A DNA stretch of 64,000 nucleotides from contig CAKPCL010000005.1 of NCBI GenBank assembly GCA_934141605.1, forward strand, positions 4,574 to 68,573. Direction: 5' to 3'. This document shows, piece by piece, positions 3,841-58,288 of the stretch. The notes under the pieces are model-generated. The model was not told the origin of the DNA. It saw only the letters and a list, made by a program, of their open reading frames with translations, and ran no database searches. The stretch is from an uncultured Clostridia bacterium. GTDB taxonomy: Bacteria > Bacillota > Clostridia > TANB77 > CAG-508. The stretch's first letter is position 1. The number at the start of each line of letters is the position of its first letter. The position numbers and the translations under genes were made by a program.

Positions 3841-3919
3841 CTTTTATCCTTTCGGGATTTATGGACGTTCCTCTTTTTCCCTTTTTGGATGGATTTGGGG
3901 ACACTCCTTAAATCTTTTT

Positions 3920-4399
3920 TTATATATTTTCAATAAAATCTTCTATTATTTTTAACATTTTTTGATTATTAGGTTGGTATTTTACTGGTTCAAATGTTTT
4001 TGATTTTATAATTGCTTCTTTTAAATCCTCGACATTTTCAATTCCTATTATATATCCTTTCTCATTAAAATCTTTAACAATTTGAATTTGATGATTATTT
4101 ACATGTTCACCATATTCATGTTTTCTTGGCACAGCTATAACCTTTTTGCCTTTTTCAATTGATGATATAATTGAACCAACACCACCATGTGTTATTATTA
4201 AACTTGCCTCATCTTGAAATTTAGCCAACTGTTCTTTTGACATCAAATCAATTATTTTCATTTTATCTGTTTGATATTTTGTATATCCTGCTTGAACAAT
4301 TACTTCTTCATCTATTGTTTTATCTTCTATATTCTTTTCCACTTCTTCTAATAATCTGTGGAAACTATTATTTTGCGTTCCTACTAATACTAATACCAT
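3920..4399 (-). CDS. glycosyltransferase family 28 C-terminal-domain protein (Alg13/PssE/Cps14G-like half of a split GT)
   Basis: 159 aa. MVLVLVGTQNNSFHRLL... and ITHGGVGSI motif. AGGAGG RBS. Follows the Alg14-like partner. Confidence 0.7.
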   Translation of the reverse strand: MVLVLVGTQNNSFHRLLEEVEKNIEDKTIDEEVIVQAGYTKYQTDKMKIIDLMSKEQLAKFQDEASLIITHGGVGSIISSIEKGKKVIAVPRKHEYGEHVNNHQIQIVKDFNEKGYIIGIENVEDLKEAIIKSKTFEPVKYQPNNQKMLKIIEDFIENI

Positions 4400-42359: not shown

Positions 42360-43316
42360 CTATTCTTTTTCTTCTACCCCTGTTGCAATTACAGTAACTT
42401 GAACTTCATCTCCCATATTTTCATCAATTACAGTTCCAAATATTATGTTTGCATCTTCACTTACTTTTTCATTTATGATAGAAACTGCACTATTTATTTC
42501 TATAAGGCTTAGTGTATTATTTCCTTTTACATTGAATATTACTCCTTTTGCTCCATCTATTTTGCTTTCTGTTAGTGGATTTTCTATTGCTTGTTTTACT
42601 GCTTCTTCTACTTTTTTCTCTCCTGATGCTCTACCTATTCCCATATATGCTTTTCCTCTATAGCTCATTGTTGTTTTGATATCAGCAAAGTCTATATTTA
42701 CTTCTCCTATTGATGTTAATAGGTCTGTTATACTAGTGATTCCTTGTTCTAAAATGTCATCTGCTAATGAAAAAGCATTGTTTAGTGTTACTTTTGAGTC
42801 TGTTACTTTTAAAAGGTTGTCGTTTAATACAACTATTAAGTCATCAACATTATCTTTTAGTCTTTCTGTTCCTTTTTCTGCTCTTAGTTTTCTTGCTTTT
42901 CCTTCAAATGCAAATGGTTTTGTTACTATTCCTATTGTTAATATTCCCATTTCTTTTGCTATTTCTGCTACTATTGGGGCTGCACCTGTTCCTGTTCCTC
43001 CACCCATTCCGGCTGTTATGAATACTAAGTCTGAGCCTCTTAGTATGTTTTTTATATCTTCTTTATTTTCTATTGCTGCTCTTTCTCCTATAATTTCATT
43101 TGCTCCTGCTCCTAGTCCTCTTGTTGTTTGTACTCCTATTTGTAGTGTGTTGCTGGTTCTTGCTCTTTTTAGTGTTCCTGTTTCTGTGTTTATCATGTAA
43201 AATGATACTCCTTTTACATTGTCTTCTATCATCCTTGTTATTGCGTTGTTTCCTGCTCCACCTACTCCTATTACTTTTATTTTTAGTATTTTGTCTAGGT
43301 CTCTTATATCGTTCAT
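42360..43316 (-). CDS. FtsZ-family tubulin-like GTPase, short form without C-terminal linker/tail
   Basis: GVGGAGNNA and GGGTGTGAAPIVAEIAKE signature. The protein ends right after the globular domain (…VIATGVEEKE), 318 aa. Confidence 0.85.
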   Translation of the reverse strand: MNDIRDLDKILKIKVIGVGGAGNNAITRMIEDNVKGVSFYMINTETGTLKRARTSNTLQIGVQTTRGLGAGANEIIGERAAIENKEDIKNILRGSDLVFITAGMGGGTGTGAAPIVAEIAKEMGILTIGIVTKPFAFEGKARKLRAEKGTERLKDNVDDLIVVLNDNLLKVTDSKVTLNNAFSLADDILEQGITSITDLLTSIGEVNIDFADIKTTMSYRGKAYMGIGRASGEKKVEEAVKQAIENPLTESKIDGAKGVIFNVKGNNTLSLIEINSAVSIINEKVSEDANIIFGTVIDENMGDEVQVTVIATGVEEKE

Positions 43317-43955: not shown

Positions 43956-45626
43956 TTAGCTAATATTCTTGTAAAATCTATTATATTCTTCATTATATTT
44001 TTCATTTTGAGAATCATATTTTAATGCTTTTTCAATATCTGCTTTTGCTTGTTTGAAATTTGACAATCTATAATAAGCTACACTTCTATTATAATAGGCA
44101 AATGGATTATTCTCTTCCATTGATATTGATTTATCAAACTCTTTTATTGCATCATTTAATTTATTTAAAAAAACATAGTTTATGCCCTTATTTGCATAAA
44201 TTTGTGAATTGTATCCTATTTTATCCTGTAAAACTTCTAGGTCTTTTAAAGCTAAGTTGTATTCTCCAATTCTACAATAGCAATTTGATCTAGAAGATAA
44301 AGAATCACATTCTTTTATTTCATTATTAATGCAATATGTATATTTTTCAATGGCTTCAAAATATTTTTTTTGAATTTCAAGAATTTTTCCTATATAATAT
44401 ATTCCTATTCTATTTAATTCGTCATCATCCAATTCATTATCCACTTCTTTTAATACTTCCTTATATTTTCCTTCTAAAATAAGTGAATTTATTCTATTTT
44501 CAAAATATAACACCTTTTTATATGGTTTTTCTAAATTTTCAAGATATTTAAAAATTTCTTCATTAGCATTATATATTTCTATTTTTCCATTATTATATTC
44601 TACATCTATATTATATTTATCTTTTATACATTTTTTTATATGTGTTAATAATTCTTCTTTTTCATCATTGCCCATTTTTTGAGGTATTGTATTAGAAGAA
44701 ACTTGTACTATTATATTTAATAATCTTTCTAAATTCATTTCTTCAAAAGATTCCAACATAGGTTTTGGTAGAGTAAAAATAATACTATTCTTTCCTGTTT
44801 TTTCTATTAATAAATCTTGAAAATAGTAATCATATATTTCTGTAATATCCTCAATATTTCCAATATCTATTGTATTATTATTATCTTTCATATATTTCAT
44901 AAATTTATCATTTGAGCTATTAATTATGATTCTTATTTCACTCTGTTGAGAATAATAATTATCTTTTAAAAGTAATTCTTTTGGATATGGTATAGCAGAA
45001 ATTGAAACAACTTTTTTATCGATATACTCAACTGGCGAAATAATTATTTCATCTTCGCTTAGTCCAATTTTCTTTAAGGCATCTCTTACTCTTTCAAATA
45101 ATTTATGAGGATTATTAATAAACATAACAACAGATTTCTCATTATCCTCTATAGATTCGTAGTCTAATTCTGTGATATTGTTAGAAAAATCCGTAAAATA
45201 ACTATTTTCTACTCTAGATATATAATGTGCCTTTCCATCCTTTTCAATATTTTTTTGTGTGAAACTATTATCTTTTAACCCATAAAAACATATAGAATAT
45301 AATTCTTCTATCTTTTTCCTTCTAAAATATACAAATCCATTTTCATAAAAATGCGTTAGATTGCTATCTTTTTTTAACTTTTTTATAAAATTAGAGTTAT
45401 CATTCTCCTTTGCTGAAAGAAATGTCCCTTCTAAAACATCTCCTTGTCCTTTATTGCCATCCTTTTCAATTTGTATCCAATTTTTAGGTTGATTAAAGAA
45501 AATCTTTCCTTTTACAAATGATTCTGCATATTTTCTTTTTGTACATCTAAACAATAATATTGTTGAAAAATTAAAATTGAATACATTTCTAGGCTTGACA
45601 TATGGTGTTATATCTATATAATCCAT
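43956..45626 (-). CDS. 556-aa protein: unknown N-terminal domain plus C-terminal TPR repeats
   Basis: Start moved to MDYIDIT (AGAAGGGA RBS). The C-terminal approx 150 aa show TPR periodicity (…AYYNRSVAYYRLSNFKQAKADIEKALKYD). Confidence 0.55.
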   Translation of the reverse strand: MDYIDITPYVKPRNVFNFNFSTILLFRCTKRKYAESFVKGKIFFNQPKNWIQIEKDGNKGQGDVLEGTFLSAKENDNSNFIKKLKKDSNLTHFYENGFVYFRRKKIEELYSICFYGLKDNSFTQKNIEKDGKAHYISRVENSYFTDFSNNITELDYESIEDNEKSVVMFINNPHKLFERVRDALKKIGLSEDEIIISPVEYIDKKVVSISAIPYPKELLLKDNYYSQQSEIRIIINSSNDKFMKYMKDNNNTIDIGNIEDITEIYDYYFQDLLIEKTGKNSIIFTLPKPMLESFEEMNLERLLNIIVQVSSNTIPQKMGNDEKEELLTHIKKCIKDKYNIDVEYNNGKIEIYNANEEIFKYLENLEKPYKKVLYFENRINSLILEGKYKEVLKEVDNELDDDELNRIGIYYIGKILEIQKKYFEAIEKYTYCINNEIKECDSLSSRSNCYCRIGEYNLALKDLEVLQDKIGYNSQIYANKGINYVFLNKLNDAIKEFDKSISMEENNPFAYYNRSVAYYRLSNFKQAKADIEKALKYDSQNEKYNEEYNRFYKNIS

Positions 45627-45657
45627 AATTTTATCCCTTCTTTTAACACTATACCTT

Positions 45658-45681
45658 ACTGGTTCCACACTGTGGAACCAC
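45658..45681. repeat. 24-nt palindromic motif ACTGGTTCCACACTGTGGAACCAC (copy 1, intergenic)
   Basis: 9-bp perfect arms GGTTCCACA/TGTGGAACC. A second copy at 46396-46419 differs only at the central base. Confidence 0.85.
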
Positions 45682-45682
45682 T

Positions 45683-46711
45683 CTATTTCTTATCTTTAAA
45701 TTCTTCTTTTTGTTTTTCAATTTCTCTTGCTAATTCTTCTTCAGTTGGTAAATATAATTGATATTTTGACGCAAATAAATTCTTATTATCATTAAGAACA
45801 GAATATTTTACTATTGTATCTTTTTTATCTGAACACAATATAATTCCTATTGTTGGATTATCATCTTCTGCTTTTATTTCATTATCATAATATCTAACAT
45901 AAAAATCCATTTGTCCAATATCTTGATGTGTTAGTTTGTCCAATTTTAAATCAATTAAAACGAAACATTTTAGCACATAATTGTAAAACACTAAATCAAT
46001 ATAAAAATTGTCGCCATCTACATCAATTCTTTTTTGCCTTGCTACAAAAGAAAATCCCCTACCTAATTCTAGTAAAAATTCTGATATATGTTCAAGCAAA
46101 TTAGATTCTAAGTCTTTTTCTAAAAATCTTCTGTCTTTTATGTCTAAAAATTCTAAAACATAAGGGTCTTTAATAAAGTCTTGAACTTTCTCCTTTTTCT
46201 CTAAAATATTTATTTCATTTTTTACTTCTTCTTTATGTTCTTCACTTGTTGATAAAAGCCTTTCATAATAAAAACTATTTATTTGCCTTTCTAATTGTCT
46301 AACACTCCAATTTGACTTTATTGTTTCTTCTAAATAAAAATTTCTTTTAGCCTCATTGTCTATATTCATTATTAAACGATTATGGCTCCAACTCAACTGG
46401 TTCCACAGTGTGGAACCACCTTTATACGTTAAATAAAACTTTTTCATTTTCTTTAAATTTGGAACACTAAAACCTTGTCCAAATTCTCGAGTTAACTTTT
46501 CTGAAAACAATTTTAATATTTCATTTTGAGATGCCTCTAAATTATAGTTTTCAATTAATTCGTTTATAGTAGAACCAATTTCAAAGTATAATTCTACCAT
46601 TTCAGAATTAATATTTTTCACAACATTCTGCTTTGTTTTTAATATTAAGTTATTTATTCTATCATAGTAATTTCCAAATACTTGATTATTTTGTTCTATT
46701 AAATCAGCCAT
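45683..46711 (-). CDS. YhcG-like PDDEXK nuclease domain protein (DUF1016)
   Basis: LSWSHNRLIM, IDLVFYNYVLKCFVLIDLKLDKLTHQDIGQMDFYVRYYD typical of DUF1016. Confidence 0.8.
   Translation of the reverse strand: MADLIEQNNQVFGNYYDRINNLILKTKQNVVKNINSEMVELYFEIGSTINELIENYNLEASQNEILKLFSEKLTREFGQGFSVPNLKKMKKFYLTYKGGSTLWNQLSWSHNRLIMNIDNEAKRNFYLEETIKSNWSVRQLERQINSFYYERLLSTSEEHKEEVKNEINILEKKEKVQDFIKDPYVLEFLDIKDRRFLEKDLESNLLEHISEFLLELGRGFSFVARQKRIDVDGDNFYIDLVFYNYVLKCFVLIDLKLDKLTHQDIGQMDFYVRYYDNEIKAEDDNPTIGIILCSDKKDTIVKYSVLNDNKNLFASKYQLYLPTEEELAREIEKQKEEFKDKK
46396..46419. repeat. 24-nt palindromic motif ACTGGTTCCACAGTGTGGAACCAC (copy 2, inside the DUF1016 CDS)
   Basis: Read directly. Encodes part of ...GGSTLWNQLSW. 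Confidence 0.85.
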
Positions 46712-46784
46712 TCAATACCCTCCTTTGTTTTTTGCCAATAACATTGGCAAAATTTGATATTTCATAAAAAAATTTCCTCAAAAT

Positions 46785-47561
46785 TTAATTATGTTTATTT
46801 TTTATATATTCTTTTGCACATTTTCTTATATCTTCCATCTTTTGTTTTGTATCATCATTTTTATACTCAATTCTATCTACCAAAATATCTATATAATTAT
46901 TTTCTTGCACATATTTTAAAGATATATCAAAATTTAAATCAAATATAAAAGCTATTACGCAAACCCAATAGTCAATTATTGTTTTTCTATCTTCCAATTT
47001 TATACATTTGTGTTTCAAAAAGTCTTCATATACTTTTTTACTTACTGTTTCATAATTTATAGTTTTCTTATTATATATCTTTGGAAACATATCTTCAAAT
47101 TTATCTTCTTGTTTAACCCTAAAATTATCAATCTTATCTGCATCTCTTATTATTTTACAATGAAGTAATTCAATATCATTTAAGTTGTCTTCTATTTTGA
47201 ATTTATTATGATTATATATTGCTTTACTGATTATATTATCATATTTTCTATCTTCTATGAATTTTGCTATTAAGTTACTTTCAAACAATACTTTTATTCC
47301 AAAGTCTGCATGTTCTATATTTTTGTCACTAAACTCATTAAATTCTTTTATTTGTTCAAATCTTCCTATGTCGTGCAACAATGCTATTATTTTTGCAAGT
47401 TCAATATTTTCTTTATCTAGTTTTAGCCCTGTTGCTATATATTCACTTTTTTTAACTACTTCATATGTATGTTTTATTTTTAATTTAATACTGCCATTGT
47501 CTAAATCATAGTCTTTTAAATATTCTTTAAAACTTTCCTGTGCTTTTCTAAAATCGAGCAT
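46785..47561 (-). CDS. HD-domain phosphohydrolase
   Basis: HTYEV...LHDIGRFEQ...RDADKIDN (H..HD..D pattern). Confidence 0.75.
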   Translation of the reverse strand: MLDFRKAQESFKEYLKDYDLDNGSIKLKIKHTYEVVKKSEYIATGLKLDKENIELAKIIALLHDIGRFEQIKEFNEFSDKNIEHADFGIKVLFESNLIAKFIEDRKYDNIISKAIYNHNKFKIEDNLNDIELLHCKIIRDADKIDNFRVKQEDKFEDMFPKIYNKKTINYETVSKKVYEDFLKHKCIKLEDRKTIIDYWVCVIAFIFDLNFDISLKYVQENNYIDILVDRIEYKNDDTKQKMEDIRKCAKEYIKNKHN

Positions 47562-47588
47562 TTTCGATCCTTTCTATACTTTACATTA

Positions 47589-48071
47589 TTATAATACATC
47601 TATTATATCCAATGGATATAATTTATTTTCCTTAAGCATTTTTAATGTTCTCTTTATTAGTCCTTCATCTCTTAAATTTTCAATATTCATATTTTCTAAT
47701 TCTTCTTTTGAAATCCATTTGACATCTAAGATTTCTTCTTTGTTAAATGAAATTTTTTCTTCTAATAATTCTGTTGTAAATGTTATTATTATCAATGTAG
47801 TATCTTCTATATCTTTACTCATTATTGGAAGTACATTTTTTAATCTGACTTTGCATCCAGTTTCTTCAAATATTTCTCTAATAGCTCCCTCAAATATTGT
47901 TTCTCCTTTTTTTAAATGTCCTGCAGGGACGTTCCATTTTCCATAACATTTCTTTTTTGCTTCTTTAACCATTAATATTTTATTGTTTTTTTCAATAATT
48001 CCGCCTACAATAATTTCCACCTTTATTTTCCTACCTTTCAAAAATTGCAATAAATATCTCATTTTTCTCAT
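47589..48071 (-). CDS. NUDIX hydrolase
   Basis: Nudix box GHLKKGETIFEGAIREIFEETGC. Exact start uncertain. Confidence 0.85.
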   Translation of the reverse strand: MRKMRYLLQFLKGRKIKVEIIVGGIIEKNNKILMVKEAKKKCYGKWNVPAGHLKKGETIFEGAIREIFEETGCKVRLKNVLPIMSKDIEDTTLIIITFTTELLEEKISFNKEEILDVKWISKEELENMNIENLRDEGLIKRTLKMLKENKLYPLDIIDVL

Positions 48072-48149: not shown

Positions 48150-48533
48150 TTATATTACAATTCTATATTTTTCATACTTATCACATAAATTAAGAGTTGA
48201 TTTATTTTTTATTTTTTCAATTGGAATTATAAATATATCCATACTATCAGTAACTATAAACACTTCATATATATTTGTATTTATTATAGTCTTATATGTT
48301 TTCCCTTTGGTTCCTCCACAACTTTTTAGTGCAACTTGATATTTATTATATTTAGTCTTACAAGATGTTGCTTTTACTTGCACTCTCTTTAAAATATTAT
48401 CTTTATCTACAATTAAATCATAATCTTGTGTATCATTTAATGGAATAGAAACTGTATAACCATTTGCACTATAATATGCAATTGCTATTCCTAATCCAGT
48501 ATTTCCTTTTTCTTTATTTGTTTTAAAAATCAT
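48150..48533 (-). CDS. free-standing PD-(D/E)XK endonuclease of the I-Ssp6803I / group I intron-associated family (PDDEXK_5-like)
   Basis: MIFKTNKEKGNTGLGIAIAYYSANGYTVSIPLNDTQDYDLIVDKDNILKRVQVKAT has the D...(Q/E)VK pattern. It starts 73 nt downstream of the intron-containing tRNA. Start moved to the Met with an AAGGGTG RBS. Confidence 0.6.
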   Translation of the reverse strand: MIFKTNKEKGNTGLGIAIAYYSANGYTVSIPLNDTQDYDLIVDKDNILKRVQVKATSCKTKYNKYQVALKSCGGTKGKTYKTIINTNIYEVFIVTDSMDIFIIPIEKIKNKSTLNLCDKYEKYRIVI

Positions 48534-48610
48534 ACTTTCACACCCTTTTAAAGAATATTTGTTCGTATACTGATTAAAAAATAAAAACAAGTTGCCTTGT
48601 TTTTATGGTG
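48150..48610. repeat. direct repeat copy B (intact endonuclease gene up to the tRNA-Tyr 3-prime CACCA)
   Basis: See copy A. The shared sequence ends at ...ttatggtg in both copies. Confidence 0.85.
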
Positions 48611-48913
48611 GGCAGGGATGGATTCGAACCATCGTACTCAAATGAGAACAGATTTCTTACTACTATAGTTTTCACTACCAAATTTTTTGTTTGTAGTCTG
48701 GACTTTCTCTTTATCTTTTTCAAGATACCAGGTATAAAGTCTCTACACTCGGAATTTCTTCCTAGCTCGGGATTGCCATCAGCCTTTCCTGTTAAGGTTT
48801 CCCCGAATTAGCCTAGTTTTCATCTTACCATTACTGATAAGAGCTGCAAGTTTAGGTTTTTGTTTTAACCAAAGACCACAGTCTGCCGCCTTTAGCCACT
48901 CGGCCACCTACCC
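48606..48913 (-). tRNA. tRNA-Tyr (anticodon GUA) interrupted by a group I intron in the anticodon loop
   Basis: Exon 1 (48913..48878): GGGTAGG-TG-GCC-GAGTGGCTAAA-GGC-G-GCAGA-CTGT. Exon 2 (48655..48606): AAA-TCTGT-TCTCATTTGAGTAC-GATGG-TTCGAAT-CCATC-CCTGCCC-A-CCA. Joined they give a class II tRNA with loop CTGTAAA, closely matching the bacterial tRNA-Tyr pattern. Confidence 0.85.
48656..48877 (-). ncRNA. group I intron, IC3-like (222 nt)
   Basis: 5-prime exon ends in U and the intron ends in G. Core blocks AAUUCGGGGAAACCUUAAC, AUGGCAAUCCCGAGCUAGG, GAGUGUAGAGACUUU and AAAGUCCAGACUAC resemble the Anabaena tRNA-Leu and Azoarcus tRNA-Ile intron cores, recalled from memory. Confidence 0.8.
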
Positions 48914-48951: not shown

Positions 48952-48980
48952 ATTATAAGCTTTTTAATAACTTTTGTCAA
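48952..48980 (-). promoter_or_regulatory. consensus sigma-A promoter of tRNA-Tyr
   Basis: Minus strand reads TTGACA-17 nt-TATAAT, leaving a 38-nt leader containing the nested palindromes GCTATTGTCGATAGC / TCGATAGCTCGA. Confidence 0.65.
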
Positions 48981-49011: not shown

Positions 49012-49152
49012 TCAAATCTCCACCAAAATCAAATCATCACCTATACACTTAACATTTTGCCAAGGAATAACAATATCATTATTTGAAGAAAAAATACTCA
49101 TAAACTTATTGCTACCAGGCACAATTATAGATGTCGTTGTTGCAAGATTGAT
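49012..49152 (-). pseudogene. 3-prime fragment of a YlmC/YmxH-family (PRC-barrel) sporulation protein gene
   Basis: …INLATTTSIIVPGSNKFMSIFSSNNDIVIPWQNVKCIGDDLILVEI* parallels B. subtilis YlmC …INVTTGKIQSIIIGGSGKMLGFFGKEEELVIPWRNIVKIGEDVILV, recalled from memory. There is no RBS, the N-terminal approx 25-30 aa are missing, and similarity stops near 49152. Confidence 0.55.
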
Positions 49153-50863
49153 AGTTGTTCTCTTTTGTAGAACATCCATTGTTGTTGCTGTCACATAAAA
49201 GATACTTTTCATCATTAATAATATATTCTTGTTTTTCCTGTTTTTTTAGATTTCCTTCTAATGTAATCGGTTCTCCTATTTTAAAGTAGATTTCTAATTT
49301 AATATGTTTTCTATCTCCATTTACTTTTGACACATATATTTTGTCTACTAATAGTTTTATTAAATCTTCTATATTTTCATCTATCTTTATTTCTTTTTCT
49401 AATGCTACTTTTATTTGATTCATGCTATCTTCTATAGAAGATAAGTTTTCTTTTTCTTCTTTTAGCCCTTTTATTTTCTCTTGCTGTTTCTCTATTTCTT
49501 TATTTAGTTCCTCGTTTCTTTTATAAAATTCTTCATCAGATAATAAATTTTTAATAGTAAGTTCTAATAACTTATCCTTTTTTGATTGTATTACATTTAT
49601 ATTGCTTTCTATATTTGAAATTTCCATTTCAAAATCTTTTGTAAAATTATATTTCTTGTACTTGTTCATTAAATCTTCTATAATTTCTTTTTTATTAGAA
49701 AGAAACTTATTCAAAACTACTTTTAAAATTTCTATTAATTCTGATTCTTGTATAATTGGACTTTCACATTCTTTTAGTCCATATGTAATATATCGACTAC
49801 ATGCCCAAGCAGGTTTATTTGACCTTTTGCTTCCAGATATTCTATTATATCCTGGCATGTGTTTTTCTCCTTCATGTTCTTTGCAATAAATTAATCCACT
49901 AAAAGTATATCTACTTTTAAATACGTCTTTATTTTCTACCCTATTTAAGCAGCTTGCTGATTTCTTTTCTAATATATTATTGCATTTTTCCCATAGTTCT
50001 TCTGAAACAATAGCTGGTATGTTTTCTTTGCATTCAAACACTTTCCATTCTTCTTTTGGCATCTTTTGTGCTTTGTGTAATTTGTAGTCTACCACTTTTA
50101 CAGTCCCTGTTCTGTAATATCCTTTATATTTAGGATTTCTTATAATTCTTCTTAAAGTTTGTGAAGATATCGGTGTTCCGTTTTTTCCTTTATATCCTTT
50201 TTGTTTAAAATATTCTGCTATCTTGTAAAATCCCATTTCTCCTTGCGAATAAATTTCAAATAGTTCTCTTATCATTTTTGCTTCTTCTTCATGTATCACT
50301 AATTTTGTCTTGTCCTTTCGATATCCAAATATATTATTATTTCCTAACACTCTCTTTTTCTCAATAGATCTACTAAATCCAAATTTAACTCTTTCTGATA
50401 ATTTTCTTACTTCATCTTGTGCTACACTTGCCATAATGGTTAATCTTAATTCCGAATCTGGCATAATAGTGTTAATGTTATCAGATTGAAAATACACTCC
50501 CACTCCATTTTCTAATAACTTCTGGGTATAAGAGATACTATCTAAAGTATTTCTTGCAAAACGCGTCACTTCTTTTGTAAGTATTAAATCAAACTTTCCT
50601 TTTTTGCTGTCTGCTATCATTCTTTTAAATGAATCTCTTTTGTTTACACTTGTACCACTTATACCCTCATCTACATATCCTTCAACATATGTCCAGTTAG
50701 AGACTTCTTTTATATGGTTTTCAAAATAAAAAACTTGATTACTTAATGAATTTAACTGTTCATCTTTTTCGCTTGATACTCTTGCATAGTATGTTACTTT
50801 TAGTGGTAAGTCATATATGCTTTTGCCACTACTTATTTCTTTTCTCATATTATATAAATCCAT
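49112..50863 (-). CDS. large serine recombinase (resolvase N-domain, recombinase domain, zinc ribbon, coiled coil)
   Basis: YYARVSSEKDEQLNSLSNQ catalytic Ser region, …TKEVTRFARNTLD…, 583 aa. The odd Cys/Asn-rich last approx 25 aa overlap the ylmC-like fragment in another frame. Confidence 0.9.
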   Translation of the reverse strand: MDLYNMRKEISSGKSIYDLPLKVTYYARVSSEKDEQLNSLSNQVFYFENHIKEVSNWTYVEGYVDEGISGTSVNKRDSFKRMIADSKKGKFDLILTKEVTRFARNTLDSISYTQKLLENGVGVYFQSDNINTIMPDSELRLTIMASVAQDEVRKLSERVKFGFSRSIEKKRVLGNNNIFGYRKDKTKLVIHEEEAKMIRELFEIYSQGEMGFYKIAEYFKQKGYKGKNGTPISSQTLRRIIRNPKYKGYYRTGTVKVVDYKLHKAQKMPKEEWKVFECKENIPAIVSEELWEKCNNILEKKSASCLNRVENKDVFKSRYTFSGLIYCKEHEGEKHMPGYNRISGSKRSNKPAWACSRYITYGLKECESPIIQESELIEILKVVLNKFLSNKKEIIEDLMNKYKKYNFTKDFEMEISNIESNINVIQSKKDKLLELTIKNLLSDEEFYKRNEELNKEIEKQQEKIKGLKEEKENLSSIEDSMNQIKVALEKEIKIDENIEDLIKLLVDKIYVSKVNGDRKHIKLEIYFKIGEPITLEGNLKKQEKQEYIINDEKYLLCDSNNNGCSTKENNYQSCNNDIYNCAW

Positions 50864-50958
50864 ATCTTTTATCTCCTTCCTTTTTCAAAGTATCTTTATA
50901 GATACAATTATTATATAATTGTTTTTCTTTTATGTCTATATTATAAAGTAGTTATTTT

Positions 50959-51120
50959 TCAAACTTTTTCTATTTCCTTATTAATCTCTTTTAATAATTC
51001 ATCTTGTACATTTTCATATACCTCTCTATTAATTGTATTATTTTGAAACAATTTTCTATTTAGTATCAATTCAATCTCTAACTTTACTTGTTTATTAGAT
51101 ACAATTTGCTTTTTTTCCAT
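50959..51120 (-). CDS. small hypothetical protein (53 aa)
   Basis: Not in track. GAGGAGG RBS. MEKKQIVSNKQVKLEIELILNRKLFQNNTINREVYENVQDELLKEINKEIEKV. Confidence 0.45.
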   Translation of the reverse strand: MEKKQIVSNKQVKLEIELILNRKLFQNNTINREVYENVQDELLKEINKEIEKV

Positions 51121-51360
51121 AGATTGCCTCCTCTTGTTTCTAATTAATATTCAAAGTTAGATTAATGTATGCTAAAACTTATCTCCTCCCTTCTCTATTT
51201 TTTGCTTTTAAGGCATACTAAAAAGCAAGCCTTTTATTTTGCCAATAAATGCTTGCTTTTAGTTGATTTTTTGGAACAATATTTTGAACATAATTAGACT
51301 AAGTATTTTTTTGACATTTCAATTGCGTGTTGCCATTGTAGATGTCTTAAATACTCTAAC

Positions 51361-51636
51361 TCATAATCTTCTTTTTTCTTCAAAATTTTTGTTCTTAACT
51401 TTCTGTTTGTCTTTTTTTCTCTCAAGATAATTTTTATGTTTTATCTCACTTCTTATTTCCTTTTCTTTTTTATAGTTAGGATGTCCTTTTAAAACTTTTG
51501 ATACATATTGTGGACTTACTCCTAATTCTTTTGCTATACAAACACAGTTAAGGTTTCCTTCAAAATACAATTCGCAAATTTTCTGTGCCTTGCTGTCTGG
51601 TTTGATTACCTCCTTCCAAAAAATAGTAATCAACAA
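51361..51636 (-). CDS. small HTH DNA-binding protein
   Basis: 91 aa. ICELYFEGNLNCVCIAKELGVSPQYVSKVLKG helix-turn-helix and a basic C-terminus. Confidence 0.55.
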   Translation of the reverse strand: MLITIFWKEVIKPDSKAQKICELYFEGNLNCVCIAKELGVSPQYVSKVLKGHPNYKKEKEIRSEIKHKNYLERKKDKQKVKNKNFEEKRRL

Positions 51637-51772
51637 TCCTTATTCTTTTTTGAAAATTTGACTTTCTCGTATTTCCTTCCTTTTTATAAACCTTTCTTAA
51701 GTCATTTTGTATCTACTTTTGTTGTTGATAGACTCATTGTACTACATTATTTGTATAATTTCAATACTTGCA

Positions 51773-52534
51773 TCAAAACTTTTCTCTATATTTTCCAACA
51801 ATCCAATTTTTTGCATTTTGAGTATTATCTAATAGGTATTTACCTCTATACCTTTCATCATCTCCAAAAGGGAAAAAATCCAATATATTATTTATATATT
51901 CATTATCCATTATAACTAATTCTTTTACTTTTTTAAAACATTCTTCTGTTATTTCATCCATTTCTTTAAACTTATCTTTAAAATATAAATTACTTTTATA
52001 TTGACTAATAATAATTGTATCAATTTTCTTATTTGAAAAGAATTTTTTAAATGTAGAAAATACTTTGCTACTTATCTCATTAATTTTTGTAGGTTCTTTA
52101 CCTAACTTTATCCATGCCTCTGTTAGCATATCTCTAAAACTTTCATTATTTAAGTCTTTATCATAGTTATTCATATATTCTGCAATTATCATATCATCTA
52201 TGCAATGATTTGATAACAATAAATCAAATTCATTAGGAATATCTTCAAAAGCATTTTCAAAACTTTTATTTATAGTTATAATTTTAGCATTAGGAAGTAT
52301 TTTCTTATATTTTTCATTAACATATTCTAAAACTTCTGTATTAGTATCTATAATATATAAAATTCCTTGAAAGTTTACTTCTTTCAAAGCATATGCTATT
52401 TTATATCTAAATCCTGGTGCAATTTCAACAACATTTTTAATATTTGATTTATGAGCATTTTGTATAAGTCTTGCAAATATCTGCCCTATATACCATTCCC
52501 ATTCATCATCAGCACTATTATCTTTAAATTTCAT
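51773..52534 (-). CDS. class I SAM-dependent methyltransferase-like protein
   Basis: VVEIAPGF (motif I), LYIIDTN (acidic end of beta2), DLLLSNHCIDD. Has its own RBS and follows a terminator. Confidence 0.5.
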   Translation of the reverse strand: MKFKDNSADDEWEWYIGQIFARLIQNAHKSNIKNVVEIAPGFRYKIAYALKEVNFQGILYIIDTNTEVLEYVNEKYKKILPNAKIITINKSFENAFEDIPNEFDLLLSNHCIDDMIIAEYMNNYDKDLNNESFRDMLTEAWIKLGKEPTKINEISSKVFSTFKKFFSNKKIDTIIISQYKSNLYFKDKFKEMDEITEECFKKVKELVIMDNEYINNILDFFPFGDDERYRGKYLLDNTQNAKNWIVGKYREKF

Positions 52535-52574
52535 ATTCTATTCCTCTTTATTAATATAATTATTTATTATTAAA

Positions 52575-52619
52575 TAAAAAAGTATTTCATTTCTCTAATC
52601 TATGAGAACAAAATACTTC
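52575..52619 (-). terminator. terminator ending the cargo operon
   Basis: Minus strand reads AAGTATTTTGTTCTC-loop-GAGAAATGAAATACTT followed by a T-run, directly after the 117-aa gene. Confidence 0.5.
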
Positions 52620-52649
52620 TTTCATAATTTTCTTTGTAATTAAAGAGCC

Positions 52650-53003
52650 TTATCTTTCATTATCATCTTGCTCTTTTCCTTTTTCATCTAATCCACCCAT
52701 CATTCTTCTGAATCTAGCTTTTGTTTCTGGATCAAGTTTATCAATTTGTGCTGATACTTTTTGCTCTGCTTTTTCTAAATCTTTTTTTGCAGAATCTAAA
52801 TCAGTTTGTCTTTCTGTAACAACATCTCTACATCTTTCAACTTCTTCTAATAGTTCGAGCATTTCTACCATTGGTGATTTATTTCTTTTTTCACTATTTC
52901 TTTCTCTCATAGTCCCTGGCACTCTAGCGACATCACTAATTCTACTTGAATTTGTACTTCCCTTTCCACTATAACTTGAACTTCTATAACTACTTGCTCC
53001 CAT
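52650..53003 (-). CDS. hypothetical 117-aa protein: Ser-rich N-terminus, coiled-coil C-terminus
   Basis: AGGAGG RBS. MGASSYRSSSYSGKGSTNSSRISD… Locally less AT-rich than its neighbours. Confidence 0.5.
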   Translation of the reverse strand: MGASSYRSSSYSGKGSTNSSRISDVARVPGTMRERNSEKRNKSPMVEMLELLEEVERCRDVVTERQTDLDSAKKDLEKAEQKVSAQIDKLDPETKARFRRMMGGLDEKGKEQDDNER

Positions 53004-53087
53004 AATATTACCTCCTAAAATTTATTCCTTATCAATATATATAATAACATAAAAAACGATTTTAGTCAAATTTTTACAGTTTTTCGA

Positions 53088-53195
53088 TTATTTATATATC
53101 AATTTTTCTTTATATTTTTTGCCATTAATTTTTAGTTTTATATCAAAACTTAATATATCTGGTAAATTTTCAAATTTTACCTTTTCACTTATCAT
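53088..53195 (-). CDS. possible 35-aa small ORF overlapping the SelO-like stop region
   Basis: Not in track. GGTGA 5 nt upstream of the ATG. MISEKVKFENLPDILSFDIKLKINGKKYKEKLIYK. Confidence 0.25.
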   Translation of the reverse strand: MISEKVKFENLPDILSFDIKLKINGKKYKEKLIYK

Positions 53196-53199
53196 AATT

Positions 53200-54954
53200 T
53201 CACCGTTTTTCATTTAATGAATGTTTTATCATCATTTCCTCTCCATTTATAATAGCTTTTGCAAATTCTATTTTCATATTAGAAAATGATTCTATTACTA
53301 AATAATAAGATTCATTTGATATAACCCAATAGGTTAGAAAATCTTTGTATAACTGTAAGCCTACCATACTTTCTTCATCATTATCATAATTGTTCCTTAT
53401 ATTTGTTTTAATTAGTGAATTTATAATTATATTTAGTGCATTACTATCAAGTTGCTTTGTATCATATAAATAAGAAAGTTCTCCATATATATTTTTATTA
53501 CTATAAAGATAATTTCTATCAGCATTTACTATATATTGCTTTAATATAATATTAGTTAAATCTGTTTCTTCGCTAATCTCATTGAACAATTCGTCATACT
53601 CTTGGGCAAAGTCCATAGCTTTATTTATAAAGTAATCCATATTATTTTCATTTACTAGATTTTCACTAAAAAATTCATCAACTTTTTCTTTTATCATTCC
53701 TACTTTTTCATATTCTATATATTCGGTATAATTAAGTAATAATTTCATACCTAATAGCATATTATTCTTATTCTCTTTTTTGTATATTAAATATTTTTGG
53801 AAAAATCTTGAGAAATCAAATAAATATGTAATATCTCCATTATCTTCTACTACATTTGTTTCGTAATAATTAGGTAAAAATTTTCTTGATAATACATTAA
53901 ATTTTTTAGATAAATTATCAATGTATTTACTATACTTTTTGTAATGTAAATTATAGTCTAAACCTAATAAATCACAGAATTTTATTTTCATATTTCTTTC
54001 GTATTCTTTATTCATTATATCTTCTAACCTATTTTGAACTTCAGTAATATTTTCTATATTTGAATTATCTAAAATAGATTTTATCATTAGTTTTTGTCCT
54101 ATCAATTCATACCCAAAATAATTTGACTTATATTTGTTAGTATTTGAATATTGAGGAAATCTTCCTTTTACAAAAGTTGCTGTATCAAAATCAATTAAAT
54201 TTCCACCTGTTGATATATTACCTACAGACCATGAACCATGCAAAAATCTATCACAAAACTTGTTTGCCTCAATCTTTGCTAATTTTTTGCAAAAATTCTC
54301 TAATTCCTTCATTGTATATTCGTCTTTATTTATTAAACTATTACTAATTCGATATAGTTCTTTTTCCTTATTTACTCTTATTTCTATGCTACATGGTAAA
54401 TTATAAGTTTCTTCTCTAATAATATCATCTGAATCCATATACTCGTCTAAAAAATCAAATCTTTCTTTTGTTTCTAATATAGCTAAAGTTTCAAAAGTTG
54501 GTATAGCAAAATCTTTTGCTAATATATTAGCAATTACAGTTTCTTTAATTGTTGCAGATAATGCATACTTTCCATTACTATAAATTGATTTAGGAGATGT
54601 TGCAAGTTTTGTTTTATCTCCCTTTATATTAAAATTGCTACCATAAAAATATGCTCTACCAGAACCTAAGTTACCACTTAAAGCCATACCTGTTGGATCT
54701 AGTTGTTTATCACTATAAGCTTTTCCTACTAATTGCTTGTTTGACTTTTTTTCATCTAAAGTTATTGAAAACATTTCACTTATTTTTTGTTTTGCTGTTT
54801 CCCATTCATATTCTTCATTAAATATTTCTTTATACAATCTGGAATTAATATAAACTACATTATAATTTTCTTTAGCCTTATATACATCTTGAACGCATAA
54901 ATTATCTTCTTTAAACAACTTTTTTATATGTGGTTTTTCAATTATTTCTTCCAT
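53200..54954 (-). CDS. SelO/YdiU-like kinase-fold protein (putative nucleotidyl transferase, or pseudokinase)
   Basis: LGSGRAYFYG (cf. GDGRA), GKYALSATIKETVIANILAKDFAIPTFETLAI (cf. REfl.SEam..LGIPTtRAL), FLHGSWSVGNISTGGNLIDFDTATF (cf. HGVMNTDNMSI.G.TIDYGPFGF), with Gly in place of the TDN Asp. Confidence 0.55.
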   Translation of the reverse strand: MEEIIEKPHIKKLFKEDNLCVQDVYKAKENYNVVYINSRLYKEIFNEEYEWETAKQKISEMFSITLDEKKSNKQLVGKAYSDKQLDPTGMALSGNLGSGRAYFYGSNFNIKGDKTKLATSPKSIYSNGKYALSATIKETVIANILAKDFAIPTFETLAILETKERFDFLDEYMDSDDIIREETYNLPCSIEIRVNKEKELYRISNSLINKDEYTMKELENFCKKLAKIEANKFCDRFLHGSWSVGNISTGGNLIDFDTATFVKGRFPQYSNTNKYKSNYFGYELIGQKLMIKSILDNSNIENITEVQNRLEDIMNKEYERNMKIKFCDLLGLDYNLHYKKYSKYIDNLSKKFNVLSRKFLPNYYETNVVEDNGDITYLFDFSRFFQKYLIYKKENKNNMLLGMKLLLNYTEYIEYEKVGMIKEKVDEFFSENLVNENNMDYFINKAMDFAQEYDELFNEISEETDLTNIILKQYIVNADRNYLYSNKNIYGELSYLYDTKQLDSNALNIIINSLIKTNIRNNYDNDEESMVGLQLYKDFLTYWVISNESYYLVIESFSNMKIEFAKAIINGEEMMIKHSLNEKR

Positions 54955-54960
54955 ATCTTC

Positions 54961-55086
54961 CTACCTTATTAAATTATTTTTTTCACAAAACTTTATACAA
55001 AATTCACATCCATAGCAAGAGGTTTCACAGAAATTTTGCTCTAAAATTCTATTTGGTATTACTTCTCTAAATCCGAACTGTACCAT
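54961..55086 (-). CDS. 41-aa Cys-rich ORF. Either the frameshifted end of the SPASM domain or a separate Cys-rich peptide
   Basis: Not in track. MVQFGFREVIPNRILEQNFCETSCYGCEFCIKFCEKNNLIR. Overlaps the radical SAM stop in the +1 frame, and an alternative ATG lies at 55107. Confidence 0.4.
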   Translation of the reverse strand: MVQFGFREVIPNRILEQNFCETSCYGCEFCIKFCEKNNLIR

Positions 55087-56068
55087 ATTTTCTAATAAAT
55101 TTAACATATTTATTATTGTTCAAGTTTTCTAAAACTTTATCCAATCCAATTTCAAAATAATTGCCTAAAAATAAATCTTTATGTATGTTAAATACTTCAC
55201 AAGGATAACAATCTCCATTACATTTCATAAATATTTTAGGACTTACAAACTTTCCAACTTCTACATCAAATCTATTATCACATTCATTTATAGCATCATA
55301 TACTGTCATTTTATATGTTTCAATTTTATCTTTAGCTCGAATATTACTATTTACATAGTATGAGTCTGTTAAGTATATCCTTTTACTTGGAAATTCCCCA
55401 AATTTTTTTAAATAAATATTATATAATTTAGATAATCGTGATTCTTTCTCTCCTTTTAATCTAGTATGAACAATTCCTAAATTTAATTCTTTTATTGTAT
55501 AATGATTAGCTACATAATTTATAATATTACATATATATTCTAATGGAATAGTTTGCTCTCCTATTGATATTTGTATAGATGGGACAAAAAATTGATTATT
55601 AAAAAGTCCCGACTCTTCCATTTTTTCAAAATAATATTCTACATTCTTTCCCCAGAATCCATTTGAAATTATTTTACTAACATCTATTTTATTCTCAGAA
55701 TATTTTATCATTTTACACATATTATCAAATTCTAAAAAAGGCTCTCCTCCAGTTATAGCAAAAGCAGGTATTCCCTGTTCATATAAATCATCTACTAATT
55801 TATATATTTCCTTTTCAGTTAATTTCGTCTTTCCTAATTTTATGCTATTTGCTGACATTCCACAATCTTTGCAATTACAATTACATCTATTCGTAATCTC
55901 AAAAGTAAATTGTATAGGCTTTATAATATGTTCTCTATTGCCTTTTTCTTTTTGCCATTTATCTATATCTTCATAAAATGTTTCTTTTTTTGAAGAATAT
56001 TTACCTATTGTTGGATTACAATTTTGTTCATTTATAGATAAAAATTTTTCCATTATTTCATCTTCCAC
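55067..56068 (-). CDS. radical SAM protein with (truncated?) SPASM/twitch C-terminal domain
   Basis: TNRCNCNCKDC CxxxCxxC cluster, GGEPF, C-terminal KCNGDCYPCEV…FLGNYFEIGLDKVLENL resembling the start of a SPASM domain. Confidence 0.75.
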   Translation of the reverse strand: MEDEIMEKFLSINEQNCNPTIGKYSSKKETFYEDIDKWQKEKGNREHIIKPIQFTFEITNRCNCNCKDCGMSANSIKLGKTKLTEKEIYKLVDDLYEQGIPAFAITGGEPFLEFDNMCKMIKYSENKIDVSKIISNGFWGKNVEYYFEKMEESGLFNNQFFVPSIQISIGEQTIPLEYICNIINYVANHYTIKELNLGIVHTRLKGEKESRLSKLYNIYLKKFGEFPSKRIYLTDSYYVNSNIRAKDKIETYKMTVYDAINECDNRFDVEVGKFVSPKIFMKCNGDCYPCEVFNIHKDLFLGNYFEIGLDKVLENLNNNKYVKFIRKYGTVRI

Positions 56069-56073
56069 TATGC

Positions 56074-56532
56074 TTATACCTCTTTCCTATACCAAAACTC
56101 ATCTTCTATTGTTTCGTATAACTTAAATCCTCTTTTTTCATAAAATTTTATTGCTATATCAAATTCTTTAAATGTGCATAATATGATTTCTTCATATTTT
56201 TCTTTTTTAGCAAAATTTAAAAATAAATCATATAGTCTATTTCCAATTCCTAAGTTTCTATATTTAGCATTTATATAAAAGCAGTTCATTTTTATAATTT
56301 TATCTGTTTGCTGCAAACCTCCACATGTTCCTACAATTTGATTTTGTTTATTTAGTGCAATCCAGAACTTATTATTTCCTGTCTTGTACTTTTCCACTAA
56401 TTTGTGTTCAAAATAATCTTTCCAATGTGTAAATCCAAATTCTTCTGATGTAATTTTAATGAGAAATTTAATAATATCTTCTCGCTCTCCATATTTACAT
56501 TCAACTATTTTTACTCCACTATTTTCTAACAT
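56074..56532 (-). CDS. GNAT family N-acetyltransferase
   Basis: 152 aa, YRNLGIGNRLYDLFLNFAKK acetyl-CoA binding motif (R/Q-x-x-G-x-G/A). Confidence 0.85.
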   Translation of the reverse strand: MLENSGVKIVECKYGEREDIIKFLIKITSEEFGFTHWKDYFEHKLVEKYKTGNNKFWIALNKQNQIVGTCGGLQQTDKIIKMNCFYINAKYRNLGIGNRLYDLFLNFAKKEKYEEIILCTFKEFDIAIKFYEKRGFKLYETIEDEFWYRKEV

Positions 56533-56545
56533 ACTTTCTCCCTAA

Positions 56546-58249: not shown

Positions 58250-58288
58250 AAATTCTTTTTACTATCTACCTTTAGATTGTACCTTTCC

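Follow-up and report, generated by a model that had tools for sequence, protein, structure and literature searches.

What is the 222-nucleotide (nt) insert that splits a tyrosine tRNA gene in a Clostridia chromosome, and is the small nuclease gene that follows this tRNA connected with it? The locus lies in a 64,000-nt stretch of contig CAKPCL010000005.1 (the window, to which all coordinates without a locus name refer), where a tRNA-Tyr(GUA) gene occupies the minus strand. We propose that this gene is interrupted by a group I intron, of the self-splicing type, and to this description, in which a part for the nuclease in intron homing is put forward conditionally, we give a probability of about 0.8.

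With introns allowed, ARAGORN calls tRNA-Tyr(gta) at c[48606,48913], the 222-nt intron starting at gene position 37, whereas its default mode, without introns, calls no gene at 48913-48606. The joined exons (86 nt) fold as a class II tRNA-Tyr whose acceptor stem has 7 bp and whose D stem has 3 bp; a T arm, the anticodon stem GCAGA/UCUGU, the loop CUGUAAA, a long variable arm and an encoded CCA complete it. A first-pass annotation, made from the sequence alone, had assembled this tRNA and its arms from 36 and 50 nt and had suggested an intron-aware search; the ARAGORN call and the joined fold agree with it. The exon-exon join reads GGCAGACUGU/AAAUCUGUU (RNA GACUGU/AAAUCU). A search of public metagenomes for the uninterrupted junction returned intronless relatives on low-GC contigs (25-31% G+C), and the tRNA-Tyr genes of two of these, L045 and L054, are identical to the joined exons of the window at 86 of 86 positions, which settles both the exons and the precise site of insertion. 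The splice-site bases that the annotation had pointed out, a U at the end of the 5' exon and a G at the end of the insert, are U35 and G222, and its placement of the insert in the anticodon loop between U35 and A36 is that of ARAGORN and recurs at the same site in 27 genomes.

To find these genomes, 185,579 species genomes were scanned for a combination of an exon anchor and two core blocks, which returned 32 loci. Twenty-six of them, together with the window, constitute 27 species-level tRNA-Tyr(GUA) genes of uncultured low-GC Clostridia, with introns of 217-233 nt at the identical site, and in one further locus the tRNA-Tyr is cut by the contig end. The other matches are not tRNA-Tyr cases: the Micromonospora locus L018 has no tRNA and matches by chance, L006 holds an intron in a cyanobacterial tRNA-Arg(CCU), and L007, L023 and L027, from the candidate phyla radiation (CPR), hold introns in tRNAs with a CAU anticodon, the GACTGT of the pattern lying inside the interruption.

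With relaxed thresholds, a search of 501 nt matches the insert to the Rfam group I model RF00028 over the whole model (48863-48677; 38.8 bits, E 1.8e-8). We drew by hand a P1-P9 fold of 64 pairs in 13 helices (Table 1) and tested it on the 27-sequence alignment A1, in which 99.4% of the cells form standard pairs; a P1-P9 fold, on which the first-pass annotation had made its group I reading depend, is thus possible. Compensatory changes are found in 13 pairs, distributed over P2, P3, P6, P9a and P9b, versus 0-3 when the partners are slid by 1-3 columns, and the covariation score of 0.169 compares with 0.086 in shuffled alignments, none of 500 of which reaches the observed value. Given the alignment only, RNAalifold returns P1, P2, P3, P4, P5, P5a, P6, P8 and the P9 domain along with the tRNA arms; the pseudoknotted P7 is not returned.

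The details of the fold agree with the group I reading. In P1, the guide GCAG pairs with exon CUGU (48881-48878) and places U35 opposite G31 in a U.G wobble at the splice site, an arrangement that is invariant in the 27 genomes, as is the terminal intron base G222. The UU of the guide has two potential partners: intron G1G2, which would extend P1 by two wobble pairs, or A36A37 of the 3' exon, which would form P10. Among the 27 genomes, the P1 extension shows a single replacement of G.U by A-U. The P1 loop is 30 nt long and contains a small hairpin of its own. P7, presumably the guanosine-binding helix as in group I introns generally, forms a pseudoknot with P3. The P5 segment CCUUAAC/GAUGG resembles a tetraloop receptor; across the 27 introns, the L2 loop varies among GUAA, GUGA and GCAA and the P9b loop GAAA is invariant.

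The core also has relatives elsewhere. All of the blocks quoted in the first-pass annotation (GGGGAAACCUUAA, AUGGCAAUCCCGAGC, GUGUAGAGACU and AAAGUCC) are present in the insert, and the J3/4-P4, P4'-P6, J6/7-P7 and J8/7-P7' blocks align with cyanobacterial tRNA-Arg(CCU) and CPR tRNA(CAU) introns. The P4-P5-P5a blocks recur in CPR, cyanobacterial and phage tRNA introns, the P9 domain has nearly the same sequence in a megaphage tRNA-Leu intron, and large phages have introns in tRNA-Leu and tRNA-Arg that are ~61% identical to the insert. By these resemblances, we class the intron with the compact IC3-like ones hosted by tRNA genes; the label IC3, which the first-pass annotation had used, is retained here as a statement of similarity to tRNA-hosted introns and as that alone. 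Its group I reading is sustained by the whole-model match, by a P1-P9 fold that covaries in 27 genomes and by a core that aligns with those of tRNA-hosted introns, and we consider the insert very probably a functional group I intron.

Several other structural readings were considered and rejected. A single long P9 helix, ACUACAAA/UUUGGUAGU with a bulge, is disfavored by the covariation, which supports two hairpins inside ACUAC/GUAGU. Pairing of intron GGUCU with exon AGACU leaves a 2-nt loop, and pairing of the same segment with intron AGACU (179-183) clashes with the supported outer helix of P9; the P1 extension is preferred over both because the G1-to-A change fits it. An archaeal-type or group II intron is discounted because the site is 35/36 rather than 37/38, no bulge-helix-bulge motif was seen and the core matches group I.

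The interrupted gene sits in an ordinary chromosomal setting. The window is part of a bacterial chromosome of ~27% G+C with dnaK, priA, mutS2 and a formate-tetrahydrofolate ligase gene, and contigs identical to the window locus are present in gut metagenome assemblies. Related intron loci belong to metagenome-assembled genomes (MAGs) titled uncultured Clostridia, Clostridium or Bacillota, and in one relative, L029, spoIIGA-sigE-sigG adjoin the tRNA, in keeping with the Firmicute host named by the first-pass annotation. A tRNA-Met gene lies directly upstream of the interrupted tRNA-Tyr in at least 17 relatives and upstream of tRNA-Tyr in 11 of 12 low-GC intronless loci. When intronless L045 is compared with intron-containing L039, synteny upstream is kept at 78-92% identity and, within the gene, the exact absence of the 225-nt intron is the only difference. 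The shared tRNA-Met/tRNA-Tyr locus and this comparison identify the interrupted gene as the ortholog of the ordinary chromosomal tRNA-Tyr and, since it occupies the place of the uninterrupted gene of its relatives, splicing is presumably required for growth. A candidate promoter and a likely terminator flank the gene (Table 1); a terminator scanner did not report the latter hairpin, which has only 2 G-C pairs.

The second question concerns the gene that follows, of which the first-pass annotation made no mention. It is not encoded inside the intron, which has no open reading frame (ORF), and starts 72 nt past the tRNA. Its 127-aa product matches Pfam PF11645 (PDDEXK_5; E 5.1e-16, 59.4 bits against a cut-off of 26.1) and the PADLOC 'homing endonuclease' model (E 2.8e-6); no NCBIfam model matches it. 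The top match among PDB sequences is 2OST, at E 5.6e-4 for the single sequence and 4.7e-6 for a 10-sequence profile. Orthologs are 59-87% identical, with 55 invariant residues. The motif D39...Q52-V53-K54 is invariant in 10 orthologs and aligns with D37...Q50-V51-K52 of 2OST; we take D39 and Q52-V53-K54 to be the catalytic residues. A homologous NCBI cluster (P0048, 85% identical) is named 'group I intron-associated PD-(D/E)XK endonuclease', which indicates that the link of this family to introns has already been recognized. PF11645 corresponds to ssp6803i and 2OST, the I-Ssp6803I homing-endonuclease family (PMC3424549), whose founding member cleaves a tRNA gene where an intron inserts (PMC3384342, PMC3424549). 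The gene most likely encodes a free-standing putative homing endonuclease.

A mechanism that would unite intron and nuclease can be outlined. The interrupted tRNA-Tyr would be transcribed from its own promoter and the intron would fold into P1-P9, with exon CUGU paired to the guide GCAG and U35 placed in the U.G wobble. Free guanosine bound in P7 would attack after U35, G222 would then replace it in the P7 pocket, and A36A37 could pair with the guide UU as P10, helped by the anticodon stem; exon ligation would yield an ordinary 86-nt tRNA-Tyr. The nuclease, for its part, would cut the uninterrupted tRNA-Tyr near the center of the palindrome GGCAGA-CTGTAAA-TCTGTT. The intron site is half a base from the center of this anticodon stem-loop palindrome. 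Repair from an intron-containing donor would copy the intron together with the nuclease gene ~125 nt away (collaborative homing), and the intron, by splitting the target, would render its own genome resistant to the nuclease. The precedent of the family, the linkage described below and a phage tRNA-Tyr split at CTGT/AAA (L163, below) provide indirect hints for cleavage at the insertion site. On balance, we consider a homing partnership between intron and nuclease somewhat better than an even bet.

A different relationship is conceivable in which the intron splices and is immobile, being inherited vertically with occasional loss, and the nuclease is a passenger of a genomic island, serving in defence, repair or homing at some other site. 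We regard this account as unlikely, although it is the alternative that fares best, and the distribution of the two components bears on it from both sides. We counted intron-containing species for which 500 nt or more were available on the downstream side (n = 21) and informative intronless loci of the related clade (n = 11). The nuclease gene follows the tRNA in 12 of the 21 species and is found beside tRNA-Tyr at none of the 11 loci (Fisher p = 0.0016, a value that ignores phylogeny). A further 27 metagenome contigs (8 + 19), picked for the nuclease gene, all carry an intron-containing tRNA-Tyr upstream of it. Also against a passenger, the position and strand of this gene are constant, 56-87 nt past the tRNA in all of the 12 species except L026, where the distance is 474 nt, although the DNA beyond differs, and the activity established for the founding member of its family is cleavage of a tRNA gene at an intron insertion site. 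In favor of the passenger are the nine of 21 intron-containing species that have no nuclease gene, the strain variability of the DNA downstream of tRNA and nuclease, which includes candidate defence genes, the insertion of integrative elements at tRNA-Tyr, and the occurrence of phage relatives of the nuclease in tRNA arrays where, in the nine loci scanned, no group I intron was detected.

Intron and nuclease are each polymorphic, the intron being absent at 12 intronless loci and the nuclease from nine of the 21 intron loci. The clearest single comparison is between L004 and L017, which are 97.8% identical through tRNA-Met, tRNA-Tyr with its intron and the hairpin; L004 then has a nuclease cassette of 383 nt with the ORF where L017 has 14 nt, after which homology resumes. 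In two species the nuclease frame, otherwise intact, contains an in-frame stop: after codon 42 in L020 (1401-1781) and 10 codons before the end in L021 (5990-6370). These stops could be recent inactivations or sequencing errors, and they fit the decay of a selfish gene.

Against an intron of this type, and against a homing partnership built on it, several results have to be set. At the gathering threshold, Rfam gave no intron match in the full window; the window intron falls below the gathering score of RF00028, which is 50 bits, so that the covariance-model search suggested by the first-pass annotation found nothing at that threshold and the 38.8-bit match with thresholds relaxed. We treat this score as weak contrary evidence, because the ortholog in the L004 tRNA-Tyr reaches 55.7 bits, above the gathering score, and because RF00028, at E <= 0.01, finds no match in a megaphage locus that holds a clearly related tRNA-Leu intron; its sensitivity for such compact introns is limited. 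Bona fide tRNA introns from the same genome scan score 58.8-77.6 bits. P1, P4, P5 and P7 are invariant and therefore give no covariation signal, their support being similarity to other group I introns, and the 27 introns are close relatives by shared ancestry (88% mean column identity), so that the counts of compensatory changes are not counts of independent events. For the nuclease, an AlphaFold2 model from a shallow alignment has a mean predicted local distance difference test score (pLDDT) of 42.9, too poor to judge the fold; no promoter was found for the gene, and a terminator-like hairpin stands between it and the tRNA; and its target is drawn from family, position and linkage. The nine intron-containing species without the gene indicate that the intron persists without the nuclease. 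The DNA downstream of tRNA and nuclease is a variable island, and part of the intron-nuclease linkage could reflect a hot spot rather than a functional pair.

That the protein has lost cleavage and is now kept, for the benefit of the host, as a splicing helper (maturase) is very unlikely. Homing endonucleases have repeatedly become maturases (review PMC3384342), and the good conservation of the protein noted above would suit such a role. However, the D...QVK motif aligned with 2OST is invariant, and the nine species that keep the intron without the gene, together with the two copies that carry stops, imply that the intron is independent of the protein. We know of no maturase in the I-Ssp6803I family. 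Finally, that the insert does not splice and has killed this tRNA-Tyr, with a second, uninterrupted copy elsewhere in the genome, is hardly credible: the sub-threshold Rfam score of the window copy would fit, but the exons are perfectly conserved and identical to the working genes of relatives, helix-preserving compensatory changes across 27 species are not expected of a pseudogene, the candidate promoter is intact and the same locus holds an uninterrupted tRNA-Tyr in relatives.

The homing partnership may be part of something larger, although we hold this extension to be doubtful. Phage tRNA arrays contain relatives of the nuclease, often by tRNA-Tyr, and tRNA genes of very large phages contain relatives of the intron. 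Collaborative homing in a chromosomal tRNA gene might be one element of a wider contest over tRNA genes between gut bacteria and their phages, in which the intron, by splitting the palindromic target, would shield tRNA-Tyr from its own nuclease and from phage-borne ones, and the nuclease would promote exchange of the adjacent island of defence genes.

Table 1. Positions of the interrupted tRNA-Tyr gene, the helices of its predicted intron and the flanking features in the window.
Feature	Position	Strand	Evidence and remarks
Candidate sigma-70-type promoter, TTGACA-17 nt-TATAAT, ~38 nt upstream of the tRNA	48952..48980	-	12/12 consensus matches; consensus only
tRNA-Tyr(GUA) 5' exon, 36 nt, ending in anticodon G34 U35	48878..48913	-	ARAGORN with introns; same as intronless L045 and L054
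Predicted group I intron, 222 nt, no ORF, between U35 and A36; omega G at 48656	48656..48877	-	RF00028, 27 orthologs, covariation, RNAalifold
Internal guide UUGCAG, intron positions 29-34	48844..48849	-	Read from the sequence; invariant in 27 genomes; RNAalifold
P2 hairpin, 7 bp, GNRA loop GUAA	48824..48841	-	Compensatory changes in 4 of 7 pairs
P3 5' strand ACUAGG (partner CCUGGU, 48732-48727)	48812..48817	-	2 compensatory pairs; 99.4% of cells paired
P4-P5-P5a: P4 UUCGGGG/UCCCGAG, J4/5 AAA, P5 CCUUAAC...GAUGG	48766..48807	-	Invariant in 27 genomes
P6 hairpin, GAAA loop	48748..48765	-	3 compensatory pairs
P7 5' strand GAGACU with bulged A (partner AGUCC, 48704-48700)	48738..48743	-	Invariant; common to RF00028-positive tRNA introns
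P8 hairpin AUCUU/AAGAU, GAAA loop	48713..48726	-	99.3% of cells paired; loop length variable
P9 domain: outer ACUAC/GUAGU around CAAA...UUUG and UAGU-GAAA-ACUA hairpins	48659..48697	-	2 compensatory pairs per inner hairpin
tRNA-Tyr 3' exon, 50 nt, A36 through encoded CCA	48606..48655	-	ARAGORN; intronless relatives
Likely terminator: AT-rich hairpin AAAAACAAG-GCAA-CUUGUUUUU, then U run	48576..48604	-	Read from the sequence; kept in relatives
Free-standing PD-(D/E)XK endonuclease-family gene, 127 aa, 72 nt downstream of the tRNA	48150..48533	-	PF11645, I-Ssp6803I family

The surroundings of the tRNA contain several mobile or variable segments. Directly upstream of the tRNA-Tyr promoter is an apparent integrated element (49112-63175, minus strand) with a large serine recombinase (49112-50863), a RepA_N replication initiator (61378-62247), two radical-SAM genes and GNAT, NAD synthase and cytidylyltransferase-like genes. 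The window is without the tRNA-Met that precedes tRNA-Tyr in most relatives. On the other side, the interval that separates the nuclease gene from an FtsZ-like gene (42360-43316) holds four genes on the minus strand (43956-48071), encoding a NUDIX protein (PADLOC candidate PDC-S07), an HD-domain protein, a YhcG/DUF1016 nuclease (PDC-S02, E 1e-129) and a TPR protein. These four genes are missing from the close relatives L003 and L034, in which FtsZ directly follows the nuclease, and L035-L042 carry other cargo past the nuclease, namely an Apyc1-like gene or a 387-aa ORF. The region beyond the nuclease thus looks like a strain-variable, defence-like islet.

In two metagenome contigs of a related species, L203 (1830-9800) and L204, an ~8-kb element inserted exactly after the CCA separates the intron-containing tRNA-Tyr from the nuclease gene; its genes include a serine recombinase, TnpV, a NikA-like gene, a relaxase and a Bro-N gene. 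At the far junction of this element stands a degenerate sequence resembling a tRNA 3' half (...TTCGAATACGTCCTCCGTTAACGCACCA), from which the 3' end of tRNA-Tyr seems to serve as an attachment site. L185 and L186, two of the 27 further contigs, at first looked like instances of the nuclease without tRNA-Tyr but proved on longer flanks to have the ~8-kb element inserted, with an intron-containing tRNA-Tyr just upstream.

Homologs of the nuclease, with 29-54% identity, lie inside tRNA gene arrays in all 13 of 13 IMG/VR loci, in Vibrio phage Chester (NC_055830.1, 73915-74316) and in megaphage LR756501.1. Among the 14 loci of IMG/VR and Chester, four have the homolog next to tRNA-Tyr; it is directly beside tRNA-Tyr in L165, L167 and Chester, and beside tRNA-Ser(GCU) in L166 and L169-L175. 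This distribution points to a nuclease family whose free-standing members are associated with tRNA genes. Rfam detected no group I intron in the nine phage nuclease-homolog loci scanned. In L163 (2341-2932; IMGVR_UViG_3300020201_000012), the two perfectly complementary halves of a tRNA-Tyr are split at CTGT/AAA by a 507-nt insert that contains a second odd tRNA-Tyr-like sequence and a nuclease homolog (46% identity), with CTGT repeated at both junctions. Rfam found no group I intron in L163, which is possibly the footprint of a nuclease-driven insertion. As separate observations, several phage tRNA genes in L166 (3573-4082), L169 (3283-3860) and L172 (3530-4192), from IMG/VR, match Rfam tRNA over 115-123 nt, with 31-53-nt inserts placed by ARAGORN in or near the anticodon loop.

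Relatives of the intron are found in large phages as well, by ARAGORN and sequence similarity alone, with RF00028 run on the megaphage locus only. Megaphage LR756501.1 (L177, 3744-4034) has a tRNA-Leu(UAA) with a 205-nt group I-like intron (ARAGORN). Agrobacterium phage Atu_ph07 (L179, 638-999) has a tRNA-Leu(UAA) with a 278-nt intron, over part of which a 'hypothetical protein' coding sequence is annotated, and Escherichia phage Turkey5 (L180, 846-1151) has a tRNA-Arg(ACG) with a 230-nt intron directly followed by an annotated HNH homing endonuclease. According to a 2014 review, all phage introns known by then were in protein-coding genes. Outside tRNA genes, the crAss-like Kolpuevirus sp. 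'frurule' (L178, OQ198718.1, 75415-77708) has a DnaB helicase in two pieces around a GIY-YIG endonuclease gene, with a 66-nt stretch 83% identical to the core of the tRNA-Tyr intron and no Rfam match at E <= 0.01; a group I intron in its dnaB is likely. The three CPR loci mentioned above (L007 ~850-1580, L023 ~3330-4010 and L027 ~3680-4380, from Peregrinibacteria, Saccharibacteria and Doudnabacteria MAGs) have CAU tRNAs apparently split by ~600-650 nt. In each interruption, the 3' ~220 nt match RF00028 strongly (64-78 bits), whilst the sequence 5' of them is conserved between phyla (...GCAGTTAGACTGT...).

With this locus, the range of tRNA group I introns grows by an isoacceptor (Tyr), an insertion site (35/36) and a phylum (Bacillota). 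The first-pass annotation had called the host tRNA unusual. The part of the literature covered yielded no report of a bacterial tRNA-Tyr group I intron, and none from Clostridia either; the reports found list Leu(UAA), fMet, Ile(CAU) and Arg(CCU), plus claims for other cyanobacterial tRNAs. In that respect the description holds, but the intron is no singleton, being common in abundant human-gut Clostridia. Single variants of the nuclease are listed in 650-900 blocks of a public assembly index. Because standard tRNA finders miss the interrupted gene, these genomes would appear to be without tRNA-Tyr, with consequences for codon-usage inference and for the assessment of MAG completeness. Should the nuclease cut the intronless allele, the pair would be a cellular, tRNA-gene example of collaborative homing, a proposed intermediate step in the origin of mobile introns. 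In that event, both states of one pathway could be compared, given that the same nuclease family already resides inside a tRNA intron in cyanobacteria, and the components are of modest size, the precursor having 308 nt and the protein 127 aa.

How, then, does the window compare with known systems? Introns of this size in tRNA genes are represented by those of cyanobacterial and plastid tRNA-Leu(UAA), cyanobacterial tRNA-fMet and tRNA-Arg(CCU), Azoarcus tRNA-Ile(CAU) and Agrobacterium tRNA-Arg(CCU), bacterial tRNA-hosted introns being, as we understand it, of subgroup IC3. Like the window intron, they are compact (~200-280 nt) and lie in the anticodon loop directly after a U, and they have in common with it the core blocks AAUUCGGGGAAACC, GGCAAUCCCGAGC, GUGUAGAGACU and AGUCC, GNRA loops on P2 and the P9 domain, and matches to RF00028. 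L2-P8 and L9-P5 tetraloop-receptor contacts like those of the Azoarcus structure may form in the window intron, whose GNRA loops and receptor-like P5 would suit them. The differences lie in the insertion site, which by ARAGORN positions is 34/35 for Leu and after 36 for the CAU and CCU tRNAs versus 35/36 for Tyr(GUA), in the hosts, which are cyanobacteria and proteobacteria versus Clostridia (Bacillota), and in the 30-nt P1 loop with its small hairpin. The anticodon stem can also hold the exons together in either case, as is reported for Anabaena (cited in PMC3984707).

The closest parallel for the nuclease is I-Ssp6803I (2OST), encoded in Synechocystis inside the intron of tRNA-fMet. Both proteins belong to PF11645, both are small (~150 aa versus 127 aa in the window) and both accompany a group I intron that interrupts a tRNA in its anticodon loop. 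In the case of I-Ssp6803I, the DNA of the anticodon loop has been described as a natural palindrome suited to a symmetric oligomer (PMC3384342). The two systems differ in that the I-Ssp6803I gene is inside the intron, whereas the window gene is outside both intron and tRNA, past a terminator-like hairpin; in the tRNA, which is fMet versus Tyr; and in sequence, where similarity is low (E 5.6e-4 for the single sequence). A free-standing gene of the I-Ssp6803I family beside an ORF-less tRNA intron in a bacterial chromosome appears to be undescribed in the part of the literature covered.

Collaborative homing has been described for two phage systems (PMC3984707). With these the window shares the combination of an intron that has no ORF and a free-standing gene of an endonuclease family, no more than ~125 nt from the insertion site, presence/absence polymorphism of both components and a nuclease that was never found beside an uninterrupted target. 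The phage examples, which we take to be those of the T3/T7-like DNA polymerase gene and of psbA/F-CphI in cyanophage S-PM2, concern phage genomes and protein-coding genes, whereas the window concerns a bacterial chromosome and a tRNA gene. Their enzymes are of HNH or Endo VII type versus PD-(D/E)XK in the window; the phenomenon is defined by cleavage specificity, and the window is known from sequence. Finally, the tRNA introns of large phages (LR756501.1, Atu_ph07 and Turkey5) resemble the window intron over its whole length at the ~61% identity given above and have a near-identical P9 domain (GUCCAGACUACAAAC...GGUAACGAAAGUUAUAGUAGUAAG). They occupy other tRNAs, at other insertion sites and in phage genomes, but in Turkey5, as in the window, an endonuclease gene follows the interrupted tRNA.

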